Below are positions 1,861-25,625 of a stretch of DNA of 28,400 nt, one piece after another (within the stretch, counting starts at the first letter, position 1; every line of letters begins with the position of its first letter). The position numbers were made by a program, and so were the translations under genes. This stretch comes from a virus. Under the pieces are notes generated by a model. That model had not been told where the DNA came from and did not search any database. It saw nothing but the letters and a program-made list of their open reading frames with translations. The stretch is from UHGV virus genome UHGV-0126577. One strand, given 5' to 3'.

Positions 1861-4800
1861 TCACCGCATCACCGGATCCACCTGGTTTATTAGTGGCGCA
1901 ATCCAGAACAGGTTATTGCCTGGTATCAGGGTTCGGACATTATGCACAATACGATCACCGGCATCACCATTCAACACTCCTGCGGTCACATCAATGATGC
2001 TATCCGCAAGACCAAATGACGGTCCGAATAGAGATCCTACGAATCCACGACTGGCATACCTAGACTGTGTGCCAGTGCCAAATAAAGCCCCCAGCCCAAC
2101 AGCACCACCAGTAGCCTTTTCAGCCATGTTGTTATATTCCATCAATGGCCCAAGAATACCGGATCTATCTATACCCTCAAGCACCAGCTTCTCTGGTGAC
2201 CAGTCAACATTTTTCCCTTTCGATGCTTCTTTTAGCGCATAGACCAGTGAGCCAAGAGCAATCTGAAATGCAGTGCCATAATAAAATTGCGCAGTTCCTT
2301 CCTGTAACCCACCAAGTAGCGCACGGTTGTATGAAGCCGTTGTGAATGATTTAAACTGAAATATCGTTCGCCCCATTGGAGTACTCGCCCATAAAGGTGT
2401 GTCACCAATACCGGGGGTGATGATAGTGTTATTAACGTCTTTCAGAACCGCTGACTGGAATACTCCGGCAACGTACTGATCGTCCCATTTATCAAAGTTA
2501 CCAATGTGCCATCCCTCAATTACCTCACCATGTTTCTCGAACTCACTGCGAATACGCGCAGCCATATTGTCGTTGATACCGAGTTTTGCCATGCGACGTG
2601 CAGAAAACGCACCAGACAAAATACCGTCTGACGTGAGCATTCCGTTCATGGATTTGTTTATGTCATTAAATCGATCCATGAGTGTCAGCTTGCCGAAGGC
2701 ATCAGTAATTCGCTCCATTCCTGCTTCGACTGCTGTTGTCCTGGAAGAACTGTCAACAAGATCACCAATTGCACGAGAACGTGAATGCAGTACAGCTTCC
2801 AATCCAATCCCCATCTTCAACATCTCTTCTTTGCTGGCCTTAAATGCCGGTGATTGGGATATCTGAGAAGCATAGCCTTTCATGGTGTTACGGAAACCAT
2901 TAACCATAACCCCTCTGGCCAGATCTGGAATAGCTGATACTGTCATTCCACCGAGTTTGGTCGTGAAGTTCACATCCCGCAGAAAAGCGCCAGCACGAAC
3001 AAAAAACGAAGACGGATCATCAGGCATACCATATGTACCAACAAGACGATCGCGTAATGCTGTTATGTCTCTGAGATCATTTGCTCTTGATTTTGAAAGT
3101 CTGGACTGTTCTTTCCGTAATTCCTTTTCGTACTTTCGCATTAATGAATCGAGTTTACCCTGAGGAACAACTTCACCATTGCTCTCATAACGTGCTTTCA
3201 GATTTGCCACACTTTCGTCATATTTCGCCTTTATTTTTTCAGGCACTTCCCGTAACAGACTGTCATATTCGTCCTCAATTAATTGCAGACGCTCAGTCAT
3301 AGTTCGTTTACCAAATGTTCTCGTCAACTCAATTTCTGCTGCCGCTTCACGGATATGACGTTGCAGCACGTAATTCACATCACTTTCAAGATAATCCCTG
3401 ATAAGACTATCAGGAACATTTAATGTTCTTTCTTTCGTACTACCTGCGGCTTTTACAGAAAATACGCTGACAAAATCCTGTGGAACCTTAGCACCAGTAA
3501 TTTTATTAATTACGATATCCGCTGCAATTTCAGCATCCTCAGGATCCAGTGTTTTATTTCCTCTCGACCACCAGTCAACCAAAATACGTCGAAATTTATC
3601 GCGTTCACTGATTATTTTTCCAACTTTATATATACGTGGAAAATAGCTTGCCTGGCCTAATGCTTTCAGTTCTTCATCTGGCGGTAATAAACCAAGCTTT
3701 TGCATTTCAACCTTCACCCGATTTAATACAGTTCGCATCGCCTGCGCCGTTTCCTGAACAACAGGATTAGCATGCACATCACCGCTTCGCATAGCATTCC
3801 CAACCTGCTGACGAAATGAATCAAAACTCATGTCGCCACCATCAGCTTTATACTTTGCGTATGCCTGTTTATTTCCGACAACAACAGCAGCTTCTTCACG
3901 CTGCCATCCACGTGTACGGGTTTCTACAGCTACCGGTGTTTCAATCCCCCTTTCATTTCCTTTAAGGGTGAAATTATTTTCGGCTAACTCCAGCGTTGTT
4001 TTTCGCACTGTCTTGGACGGAGACTCCATTAACCTTGTCAAAGGAGTAAGATAGCTCCCTGCTTTCCATGCAGCCTTTCCAACCCACCCACCGGAAACAG
4101 GGGTTAAATCATCCAGAGTCGCTGTATCAATTTTCATAGCACCAACACTACCACCATCAGAAAGCGAAGCGGCAGCCCTGTCAGTCGCTGATGTAATGCT
4201 CATATTATCAAGAGCATCAGCAACCTCACGTGTGGCTGCAGCCCGGACGGATGGCGAAAGCGCAACACCAGCACTGGCAAACACGCCGCTCATCATCGCA
4301 CCCGCTGCAACGTGAGCGGCACTTTCACCCCATGAGCGTGTTATTTGCTGATTATTCAGCACAACCTCGCTTAATGCTGTACCGGCAGCACCAATCGCAA
4401 TCTGTGAGCCAATACGCGCCAGTGCCCCTCCTTGAGCACCGGGGATAAACATTGACGCAACAGTAACCGGATCCATTCCCGCAGCAATACTGGCAAGAGT
4501 TCCAACTACGCCAGCATCAGACAATAAACGTCTGTCTTCATTTTCATCATCTATCTGCTGCTTAATCCACGCCGTTTCCTCTGGCGATCGGGAATCTGCA
4601 AATTTCGCCCCCCAGTATTCATAACCGTGCAACTCATTTTTATCAGCATATGGGTTATAACCTTCGACCAGTTCAAACTGTCTGGCTGGTCGGAAAAAAC
4701 CAGCCAGAATATTGTTCTGTCGCATTGCAGCCCCCCATACGGAAGGCTCCGGTGGCAATGGCTCAGGATTAGCCCCTTCCGGAAGGGCAACATCAAACCC

Positions 4801-4875
4801 AGTTTGTTCCGGCAAAACATTACCTGACGGGATCAGTCCGTTATTAAGATCTTCAGCTTGTGCATAAACTGGCAT
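1861..4875 (-). CDS. Large internal virion/ejection protein (T7 gp16-like position), 1004 aa
   Basis: Long ORF ending the structural operon. Its start overlaps the upstream stop (TAATG). Gly/Ala-rich regions. Call is by position after the gp14/gp15-like genes. Confidence 0.6.
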   Translation of the reverse strand: MPVYAQAEDLNNGLIPSGNVLPEQTGFDVALPEGANPEPLPPEPSVWGAAMRQNNILAGFFRPARQFELVEGYNPYADKNELHGYEYWGAKFADSRSPEETAWIKQQIDDENEDRRLLSDAGVVGTLASIAAGMDPVTVASMFIPGAQGGALARIGSQIAIGAAGTALSEVVLNNQQITRSWGESAAHVAAGAMMSGVFASAGVALSPSVRAAATREVADALDNMSITSATDRAAASLSDGGSVGAMKIDTATLDDLTPVSGGWVGKAAWKAGSYLTPLTRLMESPSKTVRKTTLELAENNFTLKGNERGIETPVAVETRTRGWQREEAAVVVGNKQAYAKYKADGGDMSFDSFRQQVGNAMRSGDVHANPVVQETAQAMRTVLNRVKVEMQKLGLLPPDEELKALGQASYFPRIYKVGKIISERDKFRRILVDWWSRGNKTLDPEDAEIAADIVINKITGAKVPQDFVSVFSVKAAGSTKERTLNVPDSLIRDYLESDVNYVLQRHIREAAAEIELTRTFGKRTMTERLQLIEDEYDSLLREVPEKIKAKYDESVANLKARYESNGEVVPQGKLDSLMRKYEKELRKEQSRLSKSRANDLRDITALRDRLVGTYGMPDDPSSFFVRAGAFLRDVNFTTKLGGMTVSAIPDLARGVMVNGFRNTMKGYASQISQSPAFKASKEEMLKMGIGLEAVLHSRSRAIGDLVDSSSRTTAVEAGMERITDAFGKLTLMDRFNDINKSMNGMLTSDGILSGAFSARRMAKLGINDNMAARIRSEFEKHGEVIEGWHIGNFDKWDDQYVAGVFQSAVLKDVNNTIITPGIGDTPLWASTPMGRTIFQFKSFTTASYNRALLGGLQEGTAQFYYGTAFQIALGSLVYALKEASKGKNVDWSPEKLVLEGIDRSGILGPLMEYNNMAEKATGGAVGLGALFGTGTQSRYASRGFVGSLFGPSFGLADSIIDVTAGVLNGDAGDRIVHNVRTLIPGNNLFWIAPLINQVDPVMR

Positions 4876-7592
4876 TATTTAGATCCCCACGAAAAGTAAT
4901 CTTTAAATTTGTCCATACGTTCGTTATGCAGGCGCTGATACTGCTCATCCAGAGCGCGATGCTTGTCTTTGAAGTTTCGTATAGCCTGTCCACGCATAAT
5001 TTCTTCCTGCTCGTACTGCTCCCGTTCCTGCTGCATTTTCTTATAAGGTTCCCAATCTTCTAGTGATGGTTCCCAACGCATAGGACGCCCATGTTTGTTA
5101 TAAAACGGCTGGACCCGATCGATGCCATTTTCATCCTTAGTTCTTACCATAATGGCGTAATCACCATTACGAGGTGTTAACACGTCAGGGGTTATGAATA
5201 ATTCTCCATTAATACGACTCTCAGGGGTTTTTGTCTCAACTACAGGAGCATTACCTGACGTGATCCCAAGCAACGTCGGACTGGTTGTTATAATCTCTTT
5301 GCGCTCACCGTACATCAGCCGTTCTTTTTCAGCTTTCCACTGCGCCGCCTGCCAGCCTGACGGCCCATATTGATAAAGCGCCTCCGGTGCATATTTCATA
5401 AACTGCGCTTCTCCGTTAACCTCGCTGATACTCCAGGTGCGGGCTATCTGCTGGTTGGTCATTTGCTTCGCTACGTCAGCGTTACCACCAGCAACGCGGT
5501 AGTTAATGTCATACAGCGTCTGATAGTCATTACGGAATCTAGCTGCTTCCGGCGTCTGGTCATCCGCAGACGGATCCCAACGGAACCACTGCGCCATATT
5601 GCTGACAGCAGAATTCATCGCCTTGCTGCGATCATTTTTGTACTCTTTTGAACTCTGCGTTGATGCCAATTGAGCTTTAAGAGCATCGGTCTGGTTGTAC
5701 GTAAGGTTCTGCGCCTGCTCGATAGCCGCATCAGCAGACATGCCAGAATCAGTTAGTTGCTTAACAGTCAGATAAAAACCCTGCATATCCTTCGGCATAT
5801 TTCCAATAGATGCATTGTCTGTTTCATATAACCGACTAAACAGTTCAGCCGCATTTTTAACCACTTCCTGATTGCTGGATCGGGATACTGCTGAAAGCTG
5901 CGTGATGACCTGCGAAGGCATTATGCCAGTCTGAGCCACAAGCCGAACAACCCCATCATGAGTGGAGGCATCATTAATACGAAAGTTCTGCGCCATTTCT
6001 GTGTAATCAGCAGCTTTCTGCATTGACTTGTTGCTTGGGTCTAATTTTTCACCTATTGTCAGCGCCTCATTAAATCTGCGTGAATCCCGTTGCGCCTGAA
6101 TTGCTTCATTTGATCTCTGAAGCAATGCAGACAATTTTCCGTAAGCATCGAGTTTTAACGCATAGTGAGGATCGTTAACCTCAGGCTTCACTTTCTGCAT
6201 TTCTTCTTGCTGCTGAGAAGGAGGCAAATACTGAATTGCCTGGAATATTCTCGCGTTATCAATCGCTATATCCAGTTGGTTGATTATTTTATCTGCGTTT
6301 TTTCCATACCCCCTGATGATGGTCTCCTGAGCCGGTATATAATCTGGAACCTCACCGTTATATAGCTGGGCCATGGTGTTATTAATAGCTGGCTCAAGCT
6401 GTTCTAATATTAACTTCCTTTGCTTTTCTATCTGACTATTAGCAAGGTTATCTATTTGATAAATAGTCAGCGGATCCATTCCAGTTTTATTTTTTCTATA
6501 TCGGGAAAGCCACCCTTGTGTTTCTGATGGAAGATTTCTGATAAATTCTTCTTCTGATATTTCACCTTTACGTGGATCACCGACTTTGGCGATCAGTTTA
6601 TCCACGTTACCCATCCCCCAGTTATATGCTGCTCCGGCCAATATTTCGGAGCCGTACTTACCATACAGTTGATTTACATAGTCACTGGCGAGCATTTCAT
6701 GCTGTTGTTCGTCCGTAGGGTTGTATTCAACGCCACGCTTGGCCGCCAGTTCTTTCCCTGTGCCCGGCATTAACTGGTATTTCCCCTGGGCTCTCTCTCC
6801 AGAAGATGTTATCGGTCCTTCAAGAAGACTACCATCAGGATTAAAATGTCGATCACCTGATTCAACAAGGCGTATGGCACGCATGTCCATGCCTCCAGAA
6901 TCATTTTTCTGAAACAGACCATTTAGCCATCCTTCTGGATTGGCAGCGGCATAATTCTTCGCCCGCGTTTCTGTGGCACTGCGATCATCACTTTCTATTT
7001 CTTCCAGAATGCGTTCTTGTGACCATCCCCTGGCAGCTCCATATCTGGCAATGGCTACCATTCTGGAATTTCTGGCTAAAGTGGCAGTTTGCGGGTCATT
7101 CCAGGCATCCGCTTCATTTTGTATCCATAATTTTCTCGTTGCCTGATATTGCTCATCTTCATAGGCATTTGTCTGCCCTATCTCATGTCTGAGAACTCCA
7201 GTACTGAACTGAATTTTCTGTGTTCTGGCTTGTTGCAAAAACATATTTCTTGCTGCTTCATCAGTCAATGAAGCAGCTATTTCTTCCACATCCTGATCAA
7301 ATCCAGATATGTACTCTTGCCCCTTACCAATCGCATTTTTGCCTTGTTGTGCATAAAAACCGGTTTGAGGGTTATAAAGACGTTCATTGCTGCGCTGATT
7401 AAGCTGAAGGATGGCATCCTGAGACAATGCAACATTCGCTTTCTGCCTGGCTTCACCATATGCCACCGCATACTGATCTGCGACATTCGCCAGCACCTGA
7501 CCTGCTTGAGGAACATCGAAGGTTTGAAAACCACCGGTTTGCACACCACGACTTTGCACCTGGCGTCCGGATGTAGTAGGAACAACAGGCAT
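4875..7592 (-). CDS. Internal virion protein with lytic transglycosylase (SLT) domain, 905 aa
   Basis: SLT-like motif block in the translation: ...LVESGDRHFNPDGS...GKYQLMPGTGKEL...AYNWGMGNV. Strong SD AGGAGG 7 nt upstream of the ATG at 7592. Confidence 0.7.
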   Translation of the reverse strand: MPVVPTTSGRQVQSRGVQTGGFQTFDVPQAGQVLANVADQYAVAYGEARQKANVALSQDAILQLNQRSNERLYNPQTGFYAQQGKNAIGKGQEYISGFDQDVEEIAASLTDEAARNMFLQQARTQKIQFSTGVLRHEIGQTNAYEDEQYQATRKLWIQNEADAWNDPQTATLARNSRMVAIARYGAARGWSQERILEEIESDDRSATETRAKNYAAANPEGWLNGLFQKNDSGGMDMRAIRLVESGDRHFNPDGSLLEGPITSSGERAQGKYQLMPGTGKELAAKRGVEYNPTDEQQHEMLASDYVNQLYGKYGSEILAGAAYNWGMGNVDKLIAKVGDPRKGEISEEEFIRNLPSETQGWLSRYRKNKTGMDPLTIYQIDNLANSQIEKQRKLILEQLEPAINNTMAQLYNGEVPDYIPAQETIIRGYGKNADKIINQLDIAIDNARIFQAIQYLPPSQQQEEMQKVKPEVNDPHYALKLDAYGKLSALLQRSNEAIQAQRDSRRFNEALTIGEKLDPSNKSMQKAADYTEMAQNFRINDASTHDGVVRLVAQTGIMPSQVITQLSAVSRSSNQEVVKNAAELFSRLYETDNASIGNMPKDMQGFYLTVKQLTDSGMSADAAIEQAQNLTYNQTDALKAQLASTQSSKEYKNDRSKAMNSAVSNMAQWFRWDPSADDQTPEAARFRNDYQTLYDINYRVAGGNADVAKQMTNQQIARTWSISEVNGEAQFMKYAPEALYQYGPSGWQAAQWKAEKERLMYGERKEIITTSPTLLGITSGNAPVVETKTPESRINGELFITPDVLTPRNGDYAIMVRTKDENGIDRVQPFYNKHGRPMRWEPSLEDWEPYKKMQQEREQYEQEEIMRGQAIRNFKDKHRALDEQYQRLHNERMDKFKDYFSWGSK

Positions 7593-16550: not shown

Positions 16551-16587
16551 TTGACATTTAACGCGTTAATTATTACCTTTCAGGTAA
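16551..16587 (+). promoter_or_regulatory. Promoter-like -35 TTGACA with operator TTACCTTTCAGGTAA
   Basis: Perfect TTGACA at 16551-16556. The block TAATTATTACCTT is shared with the PL-like promoter near 26379. Palindrome TTACC-N5-GGTAA at 16573-16587. Orientation is uncertain: it could serve the plus-strand tRNA cassette and/or the minus-strand structural operon. Confidence 0.35.
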
Positions 16588-16909
16588 CTAAAGAGCTCAT
16601 TCCGGTTACTAACCTGACTGGCTTGTCGTTAAATTGAACAGGTGGAGTGAGCTTTTATTTTGAGCAGTACGGCGTATGGCACATGCGACGATAGCGGTCT
16701 GGATACGTTTAAGGGGCACCCTCCCTTGCTCGGGCAAACGAACCAGGTAGCCGGAATGTGCAAGTCGAGCGGTTTTATTCCGCGCACGGGGATTCACCAT
16801 CCCGGCTATTCGGTGTGACGCCTCGGAAGAGACGAGGGTACAACGATGAGAGCATTTATGGAGCCGCGACAAAGTGTGGCGCCTTAACAGGCTAAGTGCT
16901 CTCAGCGTT

Positions 16910-16986
16910 GTGGCATTAGCTCAGTCGGACAGAGCAACCGCCTTCTAAGCGGTTGGTCGCAGGTTCGAATCCTGCATGCCACGCCA
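16910..16986 (+). tRNA. tRNA-Arg (anticodon UCU)
   Basis: Cloverleaf folded by hand: acceptor GTGGCAT/ATGCCAC (7 bp), D-stem GCTC/GAGC, anticodon stem ACCGC/GCGGT with loop CTTCTAA (anticodon TCT at 16944-16946), T-stem GCAGG/CCTGC with loop TTCGAAT, discriminator G and an encoded CCA. Confidence 0.85.
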
Positions 16987-17184
16987 GAATCACGCCTAAG
17001 GACCGTGATGCCAGAAGTTCCAGGTGCTTGGCGGTGATGGTTTCCCTTGAAGGACTATCACCGCCCTTTTTACAGCAGGACGCCATTGCGATGACTTCAT
17101 GCTGTAAACCAGTACAGCCACGGAAGGCATAACTCATTGCTTCCAGTTCGCCCGGTTCGCCGGGCATTTTTTTAAGGTGAGATC

Positions 17185-17607
17185 ATGAAAACAGCCGACA
17201 TGCTAGCTAAATATCTAAATGAATGGCCGTGCAAATATGTACGCATTGTTCAGGGTGATGATTCAATTTTTTATGGTGTTTTTGCAGGAAATGAAATGCT
17301 TTGTGAAGCAATTCCAGGTGAGCGACTTGCCGGGTTAACGCTTAGCGATGACCATGGAATAGGAGTTACTTGCCATGACTGGATTTCAGCGCAGAAAACT
17401 GAAATGGAAAAAGGCAATGTGTTTGATATTTCTCGCGCTGTATACGCCAAAGAAAAAAGTGATGATGATTACATGCGCGAAAACTTATACAACATGAAGT
17501 TACAATGCCTGGCTGAAGTGCTTAGTAAAAGATCTTTACTTGATGTGGTTGGTGCTGAGCAGGACGCCAAGGCAATCAACGCCGCATTCGATAAAATAAC
17601 CTTCTAA
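17185..17607 (+). CDS. Orphan protein linked to the tRNA (140 aa), function unknown
   Basis: Strong SD AAGGTGAG 5 nt upstream of the ATG. Opposite strand to the flanking structural and terminase genes. Followed by a strong terminator. Moderately AT-rich. Confidence 0.65.
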   Translation: MKTADMLAKYLNEWPCKYVRIVQGDDSIFYGVFAGNEMLCEAIPGERLAGLTLSDDHGIGVTCHDWISAQKTEMEKGNVFDISRAVYAKEKSDDDYMRENLYNMKLQCLAEVLSKRSLLDVVGAEQDAKAINAAFDKITF

Positions 17608-25562: not shown

Positions 25563-25625
25563 TCACCCATAAGGTAACAAAAATCAAGAATAGTTACCTA
25601 TGAGGTGCATTTACCTGTTGGGTAA
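25563..25625. promoter_or_regulatory. OR-like tripartite operator with divergent promoters
   Basis: Three palindromes: TCACCCATAAGGTAA 25563-25577, TTACCTATGAGGTGC 25594-25608, TTACCTGTTGGGTAA 25611-25625. Minus-strand promoter candidate: -35 TTGTTA, 17-nt spacer, -10 TATTAT, with the first operator in the spacer. Confidence 0.5.

Follow-up and report, generated by a model that had tools for sequence, protein, structure and literature searches.

The 28,400-nt stretch of viral DNA considered here (UHGV-0126577, hereafter the window) belongs to an E. coli prophage of the epsilon15/phiV10-like kind (Uetakevirus). The region between positions 16588 and 16909, immediately before a tRNA-Arg(UCU) gene, holds a member of a structured phage RNA family that sequence comparisons strongly support and that is apparently undescribed. 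Its centre is a 179-nt core, in which four covarying helices and two candidate pseudoknots have been shown, one pseudoknot (PK2) covarying and the other (PK1) invariant; about 60 bases of the core are invariant. Covarying helices, a covarying pseudoknot and so many invariant bases are the marks of a sophisticated functional RNA.

As for known families, Rfam 15 at the gathering threshold reported only the tRNA (16910-16983) and a sar RNA (405-472) in the window. The first-pass annotation had pointed to Rfam as a source of an identity for the region, and none was obtained: even at E <= 10 no family matched the core or the long stem that follows it (H6), and the only match touching 16588-16909 was a chance-level lncRNA at 16576-16638, with 11.3 bits against a threshold of 70. 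Rfam left the element uncovered in 11 other loci as well. Likewise, a literature search on tRNA-like prophage RNAs, phiV10/epsilon15, P1 ban/trnI, GOLLD/ROOL, put and the invariant strings retrieved no description of the RNA; two preprints, one on the Pas sRNA and one on P1vir hfq, proved unrelated to it.

Architecture of the core and its comparative support

Copies of the element were gathered by an exact-pattern scan of viral contigs, which returned at least 120 loci (designated below by L and a number); a second scan, in which each species was represented by a single genome, yielded 41 hits, of which the covariance model R1 accepted about 23 as real, the rest being chance matches. The helices were derived by hand from 33 diverse copies and converted into R1, which recovers 100 copies at 110-160 bits. 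The RNA in the window is composed of the following parts.

16591-16656, plus strand: H0, leader hairpin with the stem AAAGAGCUCAUUCC/GGAGUGAGCUUUU and a loop containing GUCGUUAAAU; it is the minimum-free-energy helix
16667-16845, plus strand: core RNA, 179 nt (model R1: 140.5 bits, E = 1e-37)
16670-16674/16686-16690, plus strand: P1, with the invariant loop UAUGGCACAUG
16679-16684 with 16756-16761, plus strand: candidate pseudoknot PK1, GCACAU of the P1 loop with AUGUGC
16698-16702/16743-16747, plus strand: P2, closing a variable extension
16746-16764, plus strand: invariant strand GGUAGCCGGAAUGUGCAAG
16764-16766/16804-16806, plus strand: P3, weak helix of 3 bp
16789-16792/16800-16803, plus strand: P4
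16795-16798 with 16812-16815, plus strand: pseudoknot PK2, CACC of the P4 loop with GGUG, the partner lying 14 nt downstream
16821-16825/16833-16837, plus strand: P5, with the loop GAAGAGA
16841-16910, plus strand: H6, long stem in which CAACGAUGAGAGCAUU (16841-16856) pairs with AGUGCUCUCAGCGUUG (16895-16910); its final base is base +1 of the tRNA

In the R1 alignment of 98 distinct sequences, 98.0% of the pair cells form standard pairs, while the controls reach 89.1% in column shuffles and 29-45% with the partners slid by 1-3 columns. Changes on both sides of a pair occur at 14 pairs, with P1, P2, P4 and P5 contributing 3-4 each, and a mutual-information scan independently places the pairs of these four helices on top; covariation across related prophages, the check put forward with the first-pass annotation, was therefore found. 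PK2 also ranks among the top mutual-information pairs: 81 copies have C-G as its first pair and 13 have A-U, the pair is never broken, and 4 copies have a gap. The A-U form occurs with different P4 stems (the L002 type and L132) and therefore arose at least twice. Regarding PK1, its strands are perfectly complementary in all 98 copies, and RNAalifold proposes the same pairing; covariation cannot test it because both strands are invariant. Two further possibilities, a fourth pair in P3 and, in the window, UAGCCGG/CCGGCUA as an alternative pairing, were weighed but gained no support.

The three hairpins named in the first-pass annotation are all present. CCTCG/CGAGG (16821-16825/16833-16837) is P5, GGGAT/ATCCC (16789-16793/16799-16803) is P4, and TTGC-tcgg-GCAA (16726-16737) sits within the P2 extension; P4 and P5 are kept by compensatory changes in the relatives, as are the helices that the earlier reader had missed. 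Outside the core, H6 cells are 87.5% paired, versus 29-58% when slid, and two-sided changes occur at 4 of its pairs; it encloses a lineage-specific insert of about 30-110 nt in the relatives, with T-arm-like sequence in some. H0 has the same layout as H6, and modules of its type, AAAGCGCAC...GUCGUUAAAU...GUGCGCUU, occur in many of the epsilon15-like relatives but are missing from others, so that H0 is an optional module. In terms of folding energy, the region is more stable than dinucleotide shuffles on both strands (z = -2.65 on plus, -2.60 on minus); such better-than-shuffle folding is weak evidence when taken alone, and it is the comparative evidence that is decisive.

The alignment also settles the strand. 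G.U pairs are frequent (50 and 11 in P1, 97 in P2, 31 and 17 in P4) and would become A.C mismatches on the minus strand, so the RNA strand is the plus one, in agreement with the sense orientation of the element in its lambdoid and P1 settings. That the region is non-coding, as first proposed, is borne out: core lengths cover all three mod-3 classes, the open minus-strand frames take more than 20 different phase combinations across the three invariant blocks, and an open minus frame is missing altogether from 21 of the 98 copies. Protein coding was rejected for either strand, since no frame is held through the invariant blocks and the indels are not multiples of three. Minus-strand "hypothetical proteins" are nevertheless annotated across the element, for instance at 2443-2811 of L002 (mEp460_037), with equivalents in 29 of the 57 loci whose neighbourhoods were compared (next section); without a consistent frame, they are artefacts, probably mis-annotations, and model R1 could put an end to such calls in annotation pipelines.

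Genomic settings, predicted control and flanking tRNAs

A similarity search extended the element beyond the relatives of epsilon15: in unrelated phages, a stretch of about 245 nt that runs up to the first bases of the tRNA is 70-83% identical. The carriers include the lambdoid phages mEp460, cdtI, Stx2c, Stx2a_1447 and Stx2k, together with P1, P7, D6 and SJ46, and matches occur in 83 phage records and 590 P1-type plasmids. Of 5426 complete E. coli genomes, 1838 contain the core, and its 2467 places there include 551 on plasmids. Present in a third of the complete genomes, the element ranks, within this analysis, among the commonest features of E. coli that lack an annotation, and it is shared with P1, Stx2-converting phages and O157 typing phages. 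No annotated feature lay under the core match among the 30 E. coli records listed. The reference-genome hits that pass the model are confined to Enterobacterales, plus one short metagenome-assembled contig labelled Bacillota. In a phage recorded as infecting Stenotrophomonas, the element is again 3' of the repressor gene.

Neighbouring open reading frames (ORFs) were clustered around 57 representative loci, which gave two main settings, with that of P1 as a third. The carriers fall into three unrelated groups of temperate enterobacterial phages, and in each the element is a module free of protein genes. In about 20 loci, which are epsilon15-like as in the window, it lies between the portal and terminase genes; in 29 loci, the lambdoid setting, it directly follows a cI-type repressor gene, a terminator and a P_L-type promoter; and in the P1-type phage-plasmids it is placed between trnI and ban, within the C1-controlled ban operon. 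In mEp460 it is just downstream of the cI-type repressor gene, on the same strand. The lambdoid promoter is sigma-70-like, and its -35 element or spacer carries O_R operator sequences, with the O_R-type repeats TTGC-N7-GCAA in mEp460 and TTAGA...TCTAA in L006. This promoter behind cI is thus P_L/O_L, and the element is the first sequence transcribed leftward upon derepression. No N gene is listed in the three lambdoid carriers whose annotation was read.

The clustering revealed no protein family common to the settings, only the setting-specific cI/cII, portal/terminase and ban. In L098 no ORF follows the module, and in L061 and L162 only remnants of 8 and 28 codons do, with the RNA intact in all three. 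From the lack of a shared protein and the intact RNA in these loci, it follows that the module acts alone or with host factors. The same RNA would thus appear to be under the control of three unrelated repressor systems, and the fact that three unrelated phage families each wired it to their own repressor argues for an important role at the lytic switch.

As for the window, the control signals are the following.

16551-16587, plus strand: predicted promoter, with -35 TTGACA (16551-16556), a 17-bp spacer and -10 TACCTT (16574-16579)
16573-16587, plus strand: inverted repeat TTACCTTTCAGGTAA, overlapping the promoter and read as a repressor operator
16573, 19737, 23219, 23281, 25611, 26323 and 26385: exact copies of TTACC-N5-GGTAA
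19719, 25226, 25563 and 25594: near copies of TTACC-N5-GGTAA

Promoter activity at 16551-16587 is a prediction; a simple consensus scan did not call the site because of its weak -10 element. Wherever the upstream flank of an epsilon15-like relative was read, TTGACA-17-TACCTT recurs together with the inverted repeat, and in the epsilon15 record the homologous inverted-repeat site is annotated as a repressor-binding site. The operator of the window shares sequence with both the -10 element and the start site. The 7 exact occurrences of TTACC-N5-GGTAA compare with 0.02 expected, and the interval between the divergent helix-turn-helix (HTH) regulator genes (25563-25625) contains one exact and two near copies, with 1-2 mismatches. 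The copies look like dispersed prophage-repressor operators, as with C1 in P1; they cluster in the immunity switch, and others occur at several further sites that look like promoters, such as the one 5' of the small terminase gene. Transcription would start near 16586, and the predicted transcript would contain, in order, H0, the core, H6 and the tRNA, so that 16588-16909 corresponds almost exactly to the stretch from the predicted start to base -1 of the tRNA, that is, to essentially the whole RNA 5' of the tRNA.

The remaining features of the locus, with the late genes that surround it, are listed below.

16910-16986, plus strand: tRNA-Arg(UCU), found by ARAGORN and by the Rfam tRNA model (73.3 bits, span 16910-16983)
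16990-17008, plus strand: trailer hairpin UCACG-CCUAAGGAC-CGUGA, kept behind tRNA-Arg and tRNA-like domains at many loci
17030-17071, plus strand: T1, terminator-like hairpin (17030-17065) with a U-tract; its loop holds UUUCCCUUGA
17150-17173, plus strand: T2, second terminator-like hairpin (17150-17165), with the ribosome-binding site of ORF140 directly 3'
17185-17607, plus strand: ORF140, 140 codons, matching phrog_4846, a function-unassigned family ("Gp49 family" in some RefSeq records)
17628-17647, plus strand: third terminator, 3' of ORF140
19126-17651, minus strand: terminase large subunit
16482-16276, minus strand: gp3
16261-14582, minus strand: portal

The late genes are on the minus strand, and the plus-strand insert that separates terminase from gp3 carries the RNA region, the tRNA, the two terminator-like hairpins, ORF140 and the third terminator. 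T1 is kept as GGCGG...CCGCC-UUUUU in most full-length copies. ORF140, which starts 12 nt past the U-tract of T2, is expressible solely via read-through; relatives carry different cargo ORFs at its position. The sequence of the trailer hairpin in the relatives is AUCACGCCUUA, which resembles the 3' end of 16S rRNA, taken here to be AUCACCUCCUUA.

The association with tRNAs extends well beyond the window. Among 95 distinct copies with sufficient flanking sequence, 79 (83%) are flanked by a tRNA or by a stem-closed tRNA-like domain: tRNA-Arg(UCU) is downstream in 19 and tRNA-Ile in one, tRNA-Ile2(CAU) is upstream in 12, and a GUUGUGG...CCACAAC domain is downstream in a further 47 (52 with five of the tRNA-Ile2 copies). 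In the epsilon15-type copies checked with tRNA-Arg, the tRNA starts at the GUGG that ends the element, and a gap of about 13-14 nt separates the end of tRNA-Ile2 from the core in those P1-type copies that were checked. The tRNA-like domains are multi-branch folds, with an acceptor-like stem, a T-arm next to the 3' strand (the T-loop being canonical, UUCGAUU, in some) and often a D-arm-like hairpin; the anticodon arm is missing, and a hypervariable insert of 60-100 nt takes its place. They fill the exact slot of tRNA-Arg, as judged from the shared 5' GUUGUGG and 3' CCAC...AAUCACG flanks, and have the same trailer hairpin and terminator behind them. RNase P recognises the acceptor and T-arm half of a tRNA; as the tRNA-like domains retain this half, RNase P is the probable maker of the 3' end of the RNA that precedes them. 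With their 16-20 bp, H0 and H6 are stems of the type cleaved by RNase III; when such long processing-type stems are counted along with the tRNAs and tRNA-like domains, the core is flanked in nearly every case. The modules shuffle: L010, L055 and L098 have H6 in tandem, and L133 has a tRNA-like domain upstream. Overall, the locus looks like a miniature stable-RNA operon.

Some relatives show peculiarities of their own. One type of tRNA-like domain copies helix 11 of 16S rRNA (L066 4600-4646; also L093 and L098), with 82-85% identity over 40 nt to nt 243-282 of the E. coli molecule and E = 3.6e-6 for the Rfam small-subunit (SSU) model; host rRNA mimicry by the core was rejected, as the core showed no similarity to the rrnH operon in a BLAST comparison. 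An rrn-type boxA (TGCTCTTTAACAA), exact or near-exact, is found about 20 nt after P5 in L083 (about +196 from the core start) and L075 (about +189); the region in L083 matches the rrnH 16S-23S spacer at 21 of 22 bases, and its boxA may point to Nus-factor antitermination on that P_L leader. In L006, at 1860-1935 and 2300-2560, at least seven hairpins CCGG-GAAAGA-CCGG with boxB-like loops occur before and after the element. L022 has two copies on its minus strand (3992-4155 and 4799-4960), separated by the insertion of a gene on the opposite strand, and the downstream copy has decayed, with GGUAGCCGG changed to GGAAGCUGG. The motif UUUCCCUUGA of the T1 loop recurs in the P2 loop of the core in relatives, and in epsilon15 and L125 a deletion between copies of it removed most of the core, H6 and the tRNA (see also L001 1840-1880). 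L002 (mEp460) contains, on the minus strand, a C4 antisense RNA (206-293), isrK (318-394) and a weak c4-a1b1 match (355-407) in its Rha/antirepressor region. At the left end of the window, the sar RNA match (RF00262; 405-472, plus strand; 45.2 bits against a gathering threshold of 43) suggests a P22-type antirepressor (immI-like) control region.

Possible functions of the RNA

The likeliest reading, to which a probability of roughly 40% is given, is that of a processed, trans-acting stable RNA of the lytic phase that acts on a conserved host component. Upon derepression of the prophage, the locus would be transcribed as a small stable-RNA operon; RNase P would cut where tRNA-Arg or the tRNA-like domain begins, at base +1, giving a 3' end ...CGUU, and RNase III or RNase E would cut at or near H0 and H6, or behind the upstream tRNA as in P1. 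The freed RNA, 180-320 nt long, would accumulate in the lytic phase with no need for a phage protein partner, and would bind, or assemble on, the host component, most plausibly one of the tRNA/translation or RNA-processing machinery.

Several points weigh against this reading. The transcript is a prediction, as are its ends and stability, the host component is a proposal, and PK1 and P3 lack covariation support. In addition, the lambdoid element is the first part of the P_L transcript, before all the early-left genes, and in the window it precedes T1, T2 and ORF140; a cis-acting leader function would fit both layouts equally well. Finally, P1 carries the core only; ban lies about 90 nt further on, and neither a terminator nor a tRNA comes after the core.

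A bolder proposal, and a rather doubtful one, is that the element represents a new, protein-independent class of RNA, either as the catalytic or self-assembling centre of a "stable-RNA operon" or as an RNA-only modifier of RNA polymerase or ribosomes; if true, unrelated temperate phages, P1 and the Stx-converting phages included, would switch such an RNA on at the loss of their repressor. Whichever host component is involved, the discovery of the target would open new phage-host biology.

In the overall ranking, the trans-acting stable RNA stands first and cis-acting processive antitermination second, with a ribozyme, a sensor, a passive leader and a minus-strand function below them. Antitermination, in the manner of HK022 put or the Bacillus EAR element, is an unlikely account of the element. 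The nascent core would bind RNA polymerase and allow it to read through T1, T2 and later terminators. In 29 of the 57 loci the element comes straight after cI, a terminator and a P_L-type promoter, in what is the putL slot in HK022 (PMC9378689), and the three annotations read list no N. Strong intrinsic terminators stand between the element and genes on the same strand, leaving no space for a promoter; ORF140, for one, has its ribosome-binding site right against the U-tract of T2. The conserved RNA modules past T1 imply that T1 is often read through, and epsilon15 lost the core jointly with the 5' half of T1.

Other observations fit antitermination poorly. Each phage has just one copy, with no counterpart on the P_R side, and the size and fold differ from those of put (70 nt, two stem-loops). 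The RNA is intact in L098, which is geneless behind the module, and in L061 and L162, with their tiny ORF remnants; in epsilon15-like phages read-through would go antisense into the terminase gene, and lambdoids of the L031 type have no terminator after the core. The separate rrn-type boxA just past the core in L083 and L075 suggests another supplier of antitermination, and the tRNA or tRNA-like domain between antiterminator and terminator has no obvious role.

The other proposals are much weaker. A ribozyme or processing element for the adjacent tRNA, for example one trimming leaders or trailers by self-cleavage, is improbable. The element does directly adjoin tRNAs, on either side, and its compact double-pseudoknot core with many invariant unpaired bases is of the kind seen in ribozymes; HDV-like theta ribozymes next to phage tRNAs were reportedly described by Kienbeck et al. 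in 2024. On the other hand, no self-cleaving ribozyme model (HDV-like/theta, hammerhead, twister, pistol, hatchet, glmS) matched at E <= 10, many copies have no true tRNA nearby, such cuts are already made by the host RNase P and RNase E, and a conserved cleavage-site context was not seen at the 5' edge of the element.

Even less probable is a riboswitch-like sensor of a host metabolite or of tRNA state, setting termination at T1/T2. An aptamer-like architecture with invariant junction bases and terminators downstream would suit it, but core and T1 are 190-300 nt apart, with the tRNA or tRNA-like domain between them and no overlapping expression platform; moreover, the P1 copy has no terminator, and no riboswitch family matched.

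As for the suggestions of the first-pass annotation, the region is structured and upstream of the tRNA on the same strand, and is therefore physically part of the tRNA precursor, so that its "long pre-tRNA leader" holds as a matter of position; it does not hold as a definition, because the element is an independent one, whose core lacks tRNA-Arg in lambdoids and is downstream of tRNA-Ile2 in P1. A "degenerate tRNA remnant" fails for the core, on which ARAGORN and the Rfam tRNA model (RF00005) are silent throughout 16588-16909, and survives only in the neighbouring tRNA-like modules of the relatives. Those modules, with the T-arm sequence in some H6 inserts, are also what speaks for a passive pre-tRNA leader left by decayed tRNA genes, with no function of its own. 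This is very improbable: the core does not resemble a tRNA, unrelated phages in which tRNA-Arg is absent still share it at 70-83% identity and with compensatory changes, and decay, contradicted by the covariation, would not preserve 60 invariant bases. The least credible reading gives the function to the minus strand, as a site for RNase III or other processing in the late mRNA from terminase to gp3/portal or as a protein from the 87-aa ORF at 16609-16872; the late operon must be transcribed through the region, the epsilon15 record has a predicted RNase III site annotated on that strand, the minus strand folds well too (z = -2.6) and several records annotate a hypothetical protein, but the element is sense to cI/P_L in lambdoids and to the ban operon in P1, its abundant G.U pairs would turn into A.C, and the frames are not kept through the invariant blocks.

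Comparison with known phage RNAs

The element belongs to none of the families against which it was tested. A tmRNA-like nature of the tRNA-like domains was dismissed, as ARAGORN finds no tmRNA in the window or the relatives and the domains have G3-C70 and hypervariable interiors, versus the G3.U70 of tmRNA, whose two ends form the tRNA-like domain, with a tag reading frame and pseudoknots in between. A lambda-type nut site, consisting of boxA (CGCUCUUA/UGCUCUUUA), a boxB with a GAAAA/GAAGA pentaloop and an N gene, was not recognised either: the P5 loop GAAGAGA has 7 nt and is boxB-like in composition only, and the boxA-like GUGCUCU(U/C) lies paired in H6. Because this strand is paired and covaries with its partner, and an exact boxA occurs in just 2 of the 95 copies, the nut site was rejected as a general explanation. 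Likeness by eye to SRP RNA, RNase P RNA and group II domain V had no support from the models and was dropped.

Regarding small RNAs, "sRNA" was the closest in spirit among the labels of the first-pass annotation, though a 179-nt double-pseudoknot RNA with some 60 invariant bases is unlike a base-pairing sRNA. The same holds for DicF (dicB operon, Qin prophage), which is likewise a regulatory RNA processed from a repressor-controlled early-left lambdoid operon; it is short, Hfq-dependent and acts by base pairing, whereas the element is large and tightly folded. The P1 ban operon holds both a dicF-like region and the element.

For tRNA-punctuated release of a non-coding RNA, the precedents are the RNase P processing of the P1/P7 C4 RNA, the P4 CI RNA and MALAT1-mascRNA. 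In the present locus too, RNase P could set the 3' end of a structured RNA at the tRNA or tRNA-like structure that directly follows it; the RNA of the element is unrelated to C4, CI and MALAT1, and its processing is predicted. RNAs C and D of phage T4 (species 1 and 2) are small stable RNAs co-transcribed and processed with the phage tRNAs, tRNA-Arg among them. No similarity between them and the element was detected, the phage-collection searches returning only temperate enterobacterial phages; T4 is virulent.

HK022 put is an RNA of about 70 nt whose two stem-loops form a V shape; it exists as a putL/putR pair and acts in cis on the zinc-binding domain of the RNA polymerase beta' subunit, suppressing termination (PMC9378689). 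Like put and Bacillus EAR, the element is a protein-free RNA with very high sequence conservation (PMC9378689), and in lambdoids without an annotated N it occupies the slot of putL, first on the P_L transcript and ahead of the terminators. It differs from put in having 179 nt, five helices and a double pseudoknot, in its P_L-side copy having no P_R counterpart, and in occurring also as a stand-alone RNA module and inside the P1 ban operon.

The nearest kind of RNA is that of ROOL and GOLLD, phage RNAs found near tRNA islands; GOLLD sometimes contains tRNAs and rises during lysis (PMC12286853). ROOL and GOLLD are, like the element, encoded by phages or prophages beside tRNA genes, with multiple pseudoknots and no co-encoded protein partner, and tRNAs or tRNA-like units may be found inside their variable regions (PMC12286853). 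There is no sequence or model similarity (no match at E <= 10), and with about 580 nt for ROOL and about 800 nt for GOLLD both are far longer than the 179-nt core; a further mark of those two families is a homo-oligomeric cage made of RNA only. Unlike them, the element has Enterobacterales hosts and sits behind repressor-controlled promoters. Once its target were found, it would offer a tractable E. coli system for asking the long-standing question of why phages keep large structured RNAs, such as ROOL, GOLLD and the T4 stable RNAs, beside tRNA genes.

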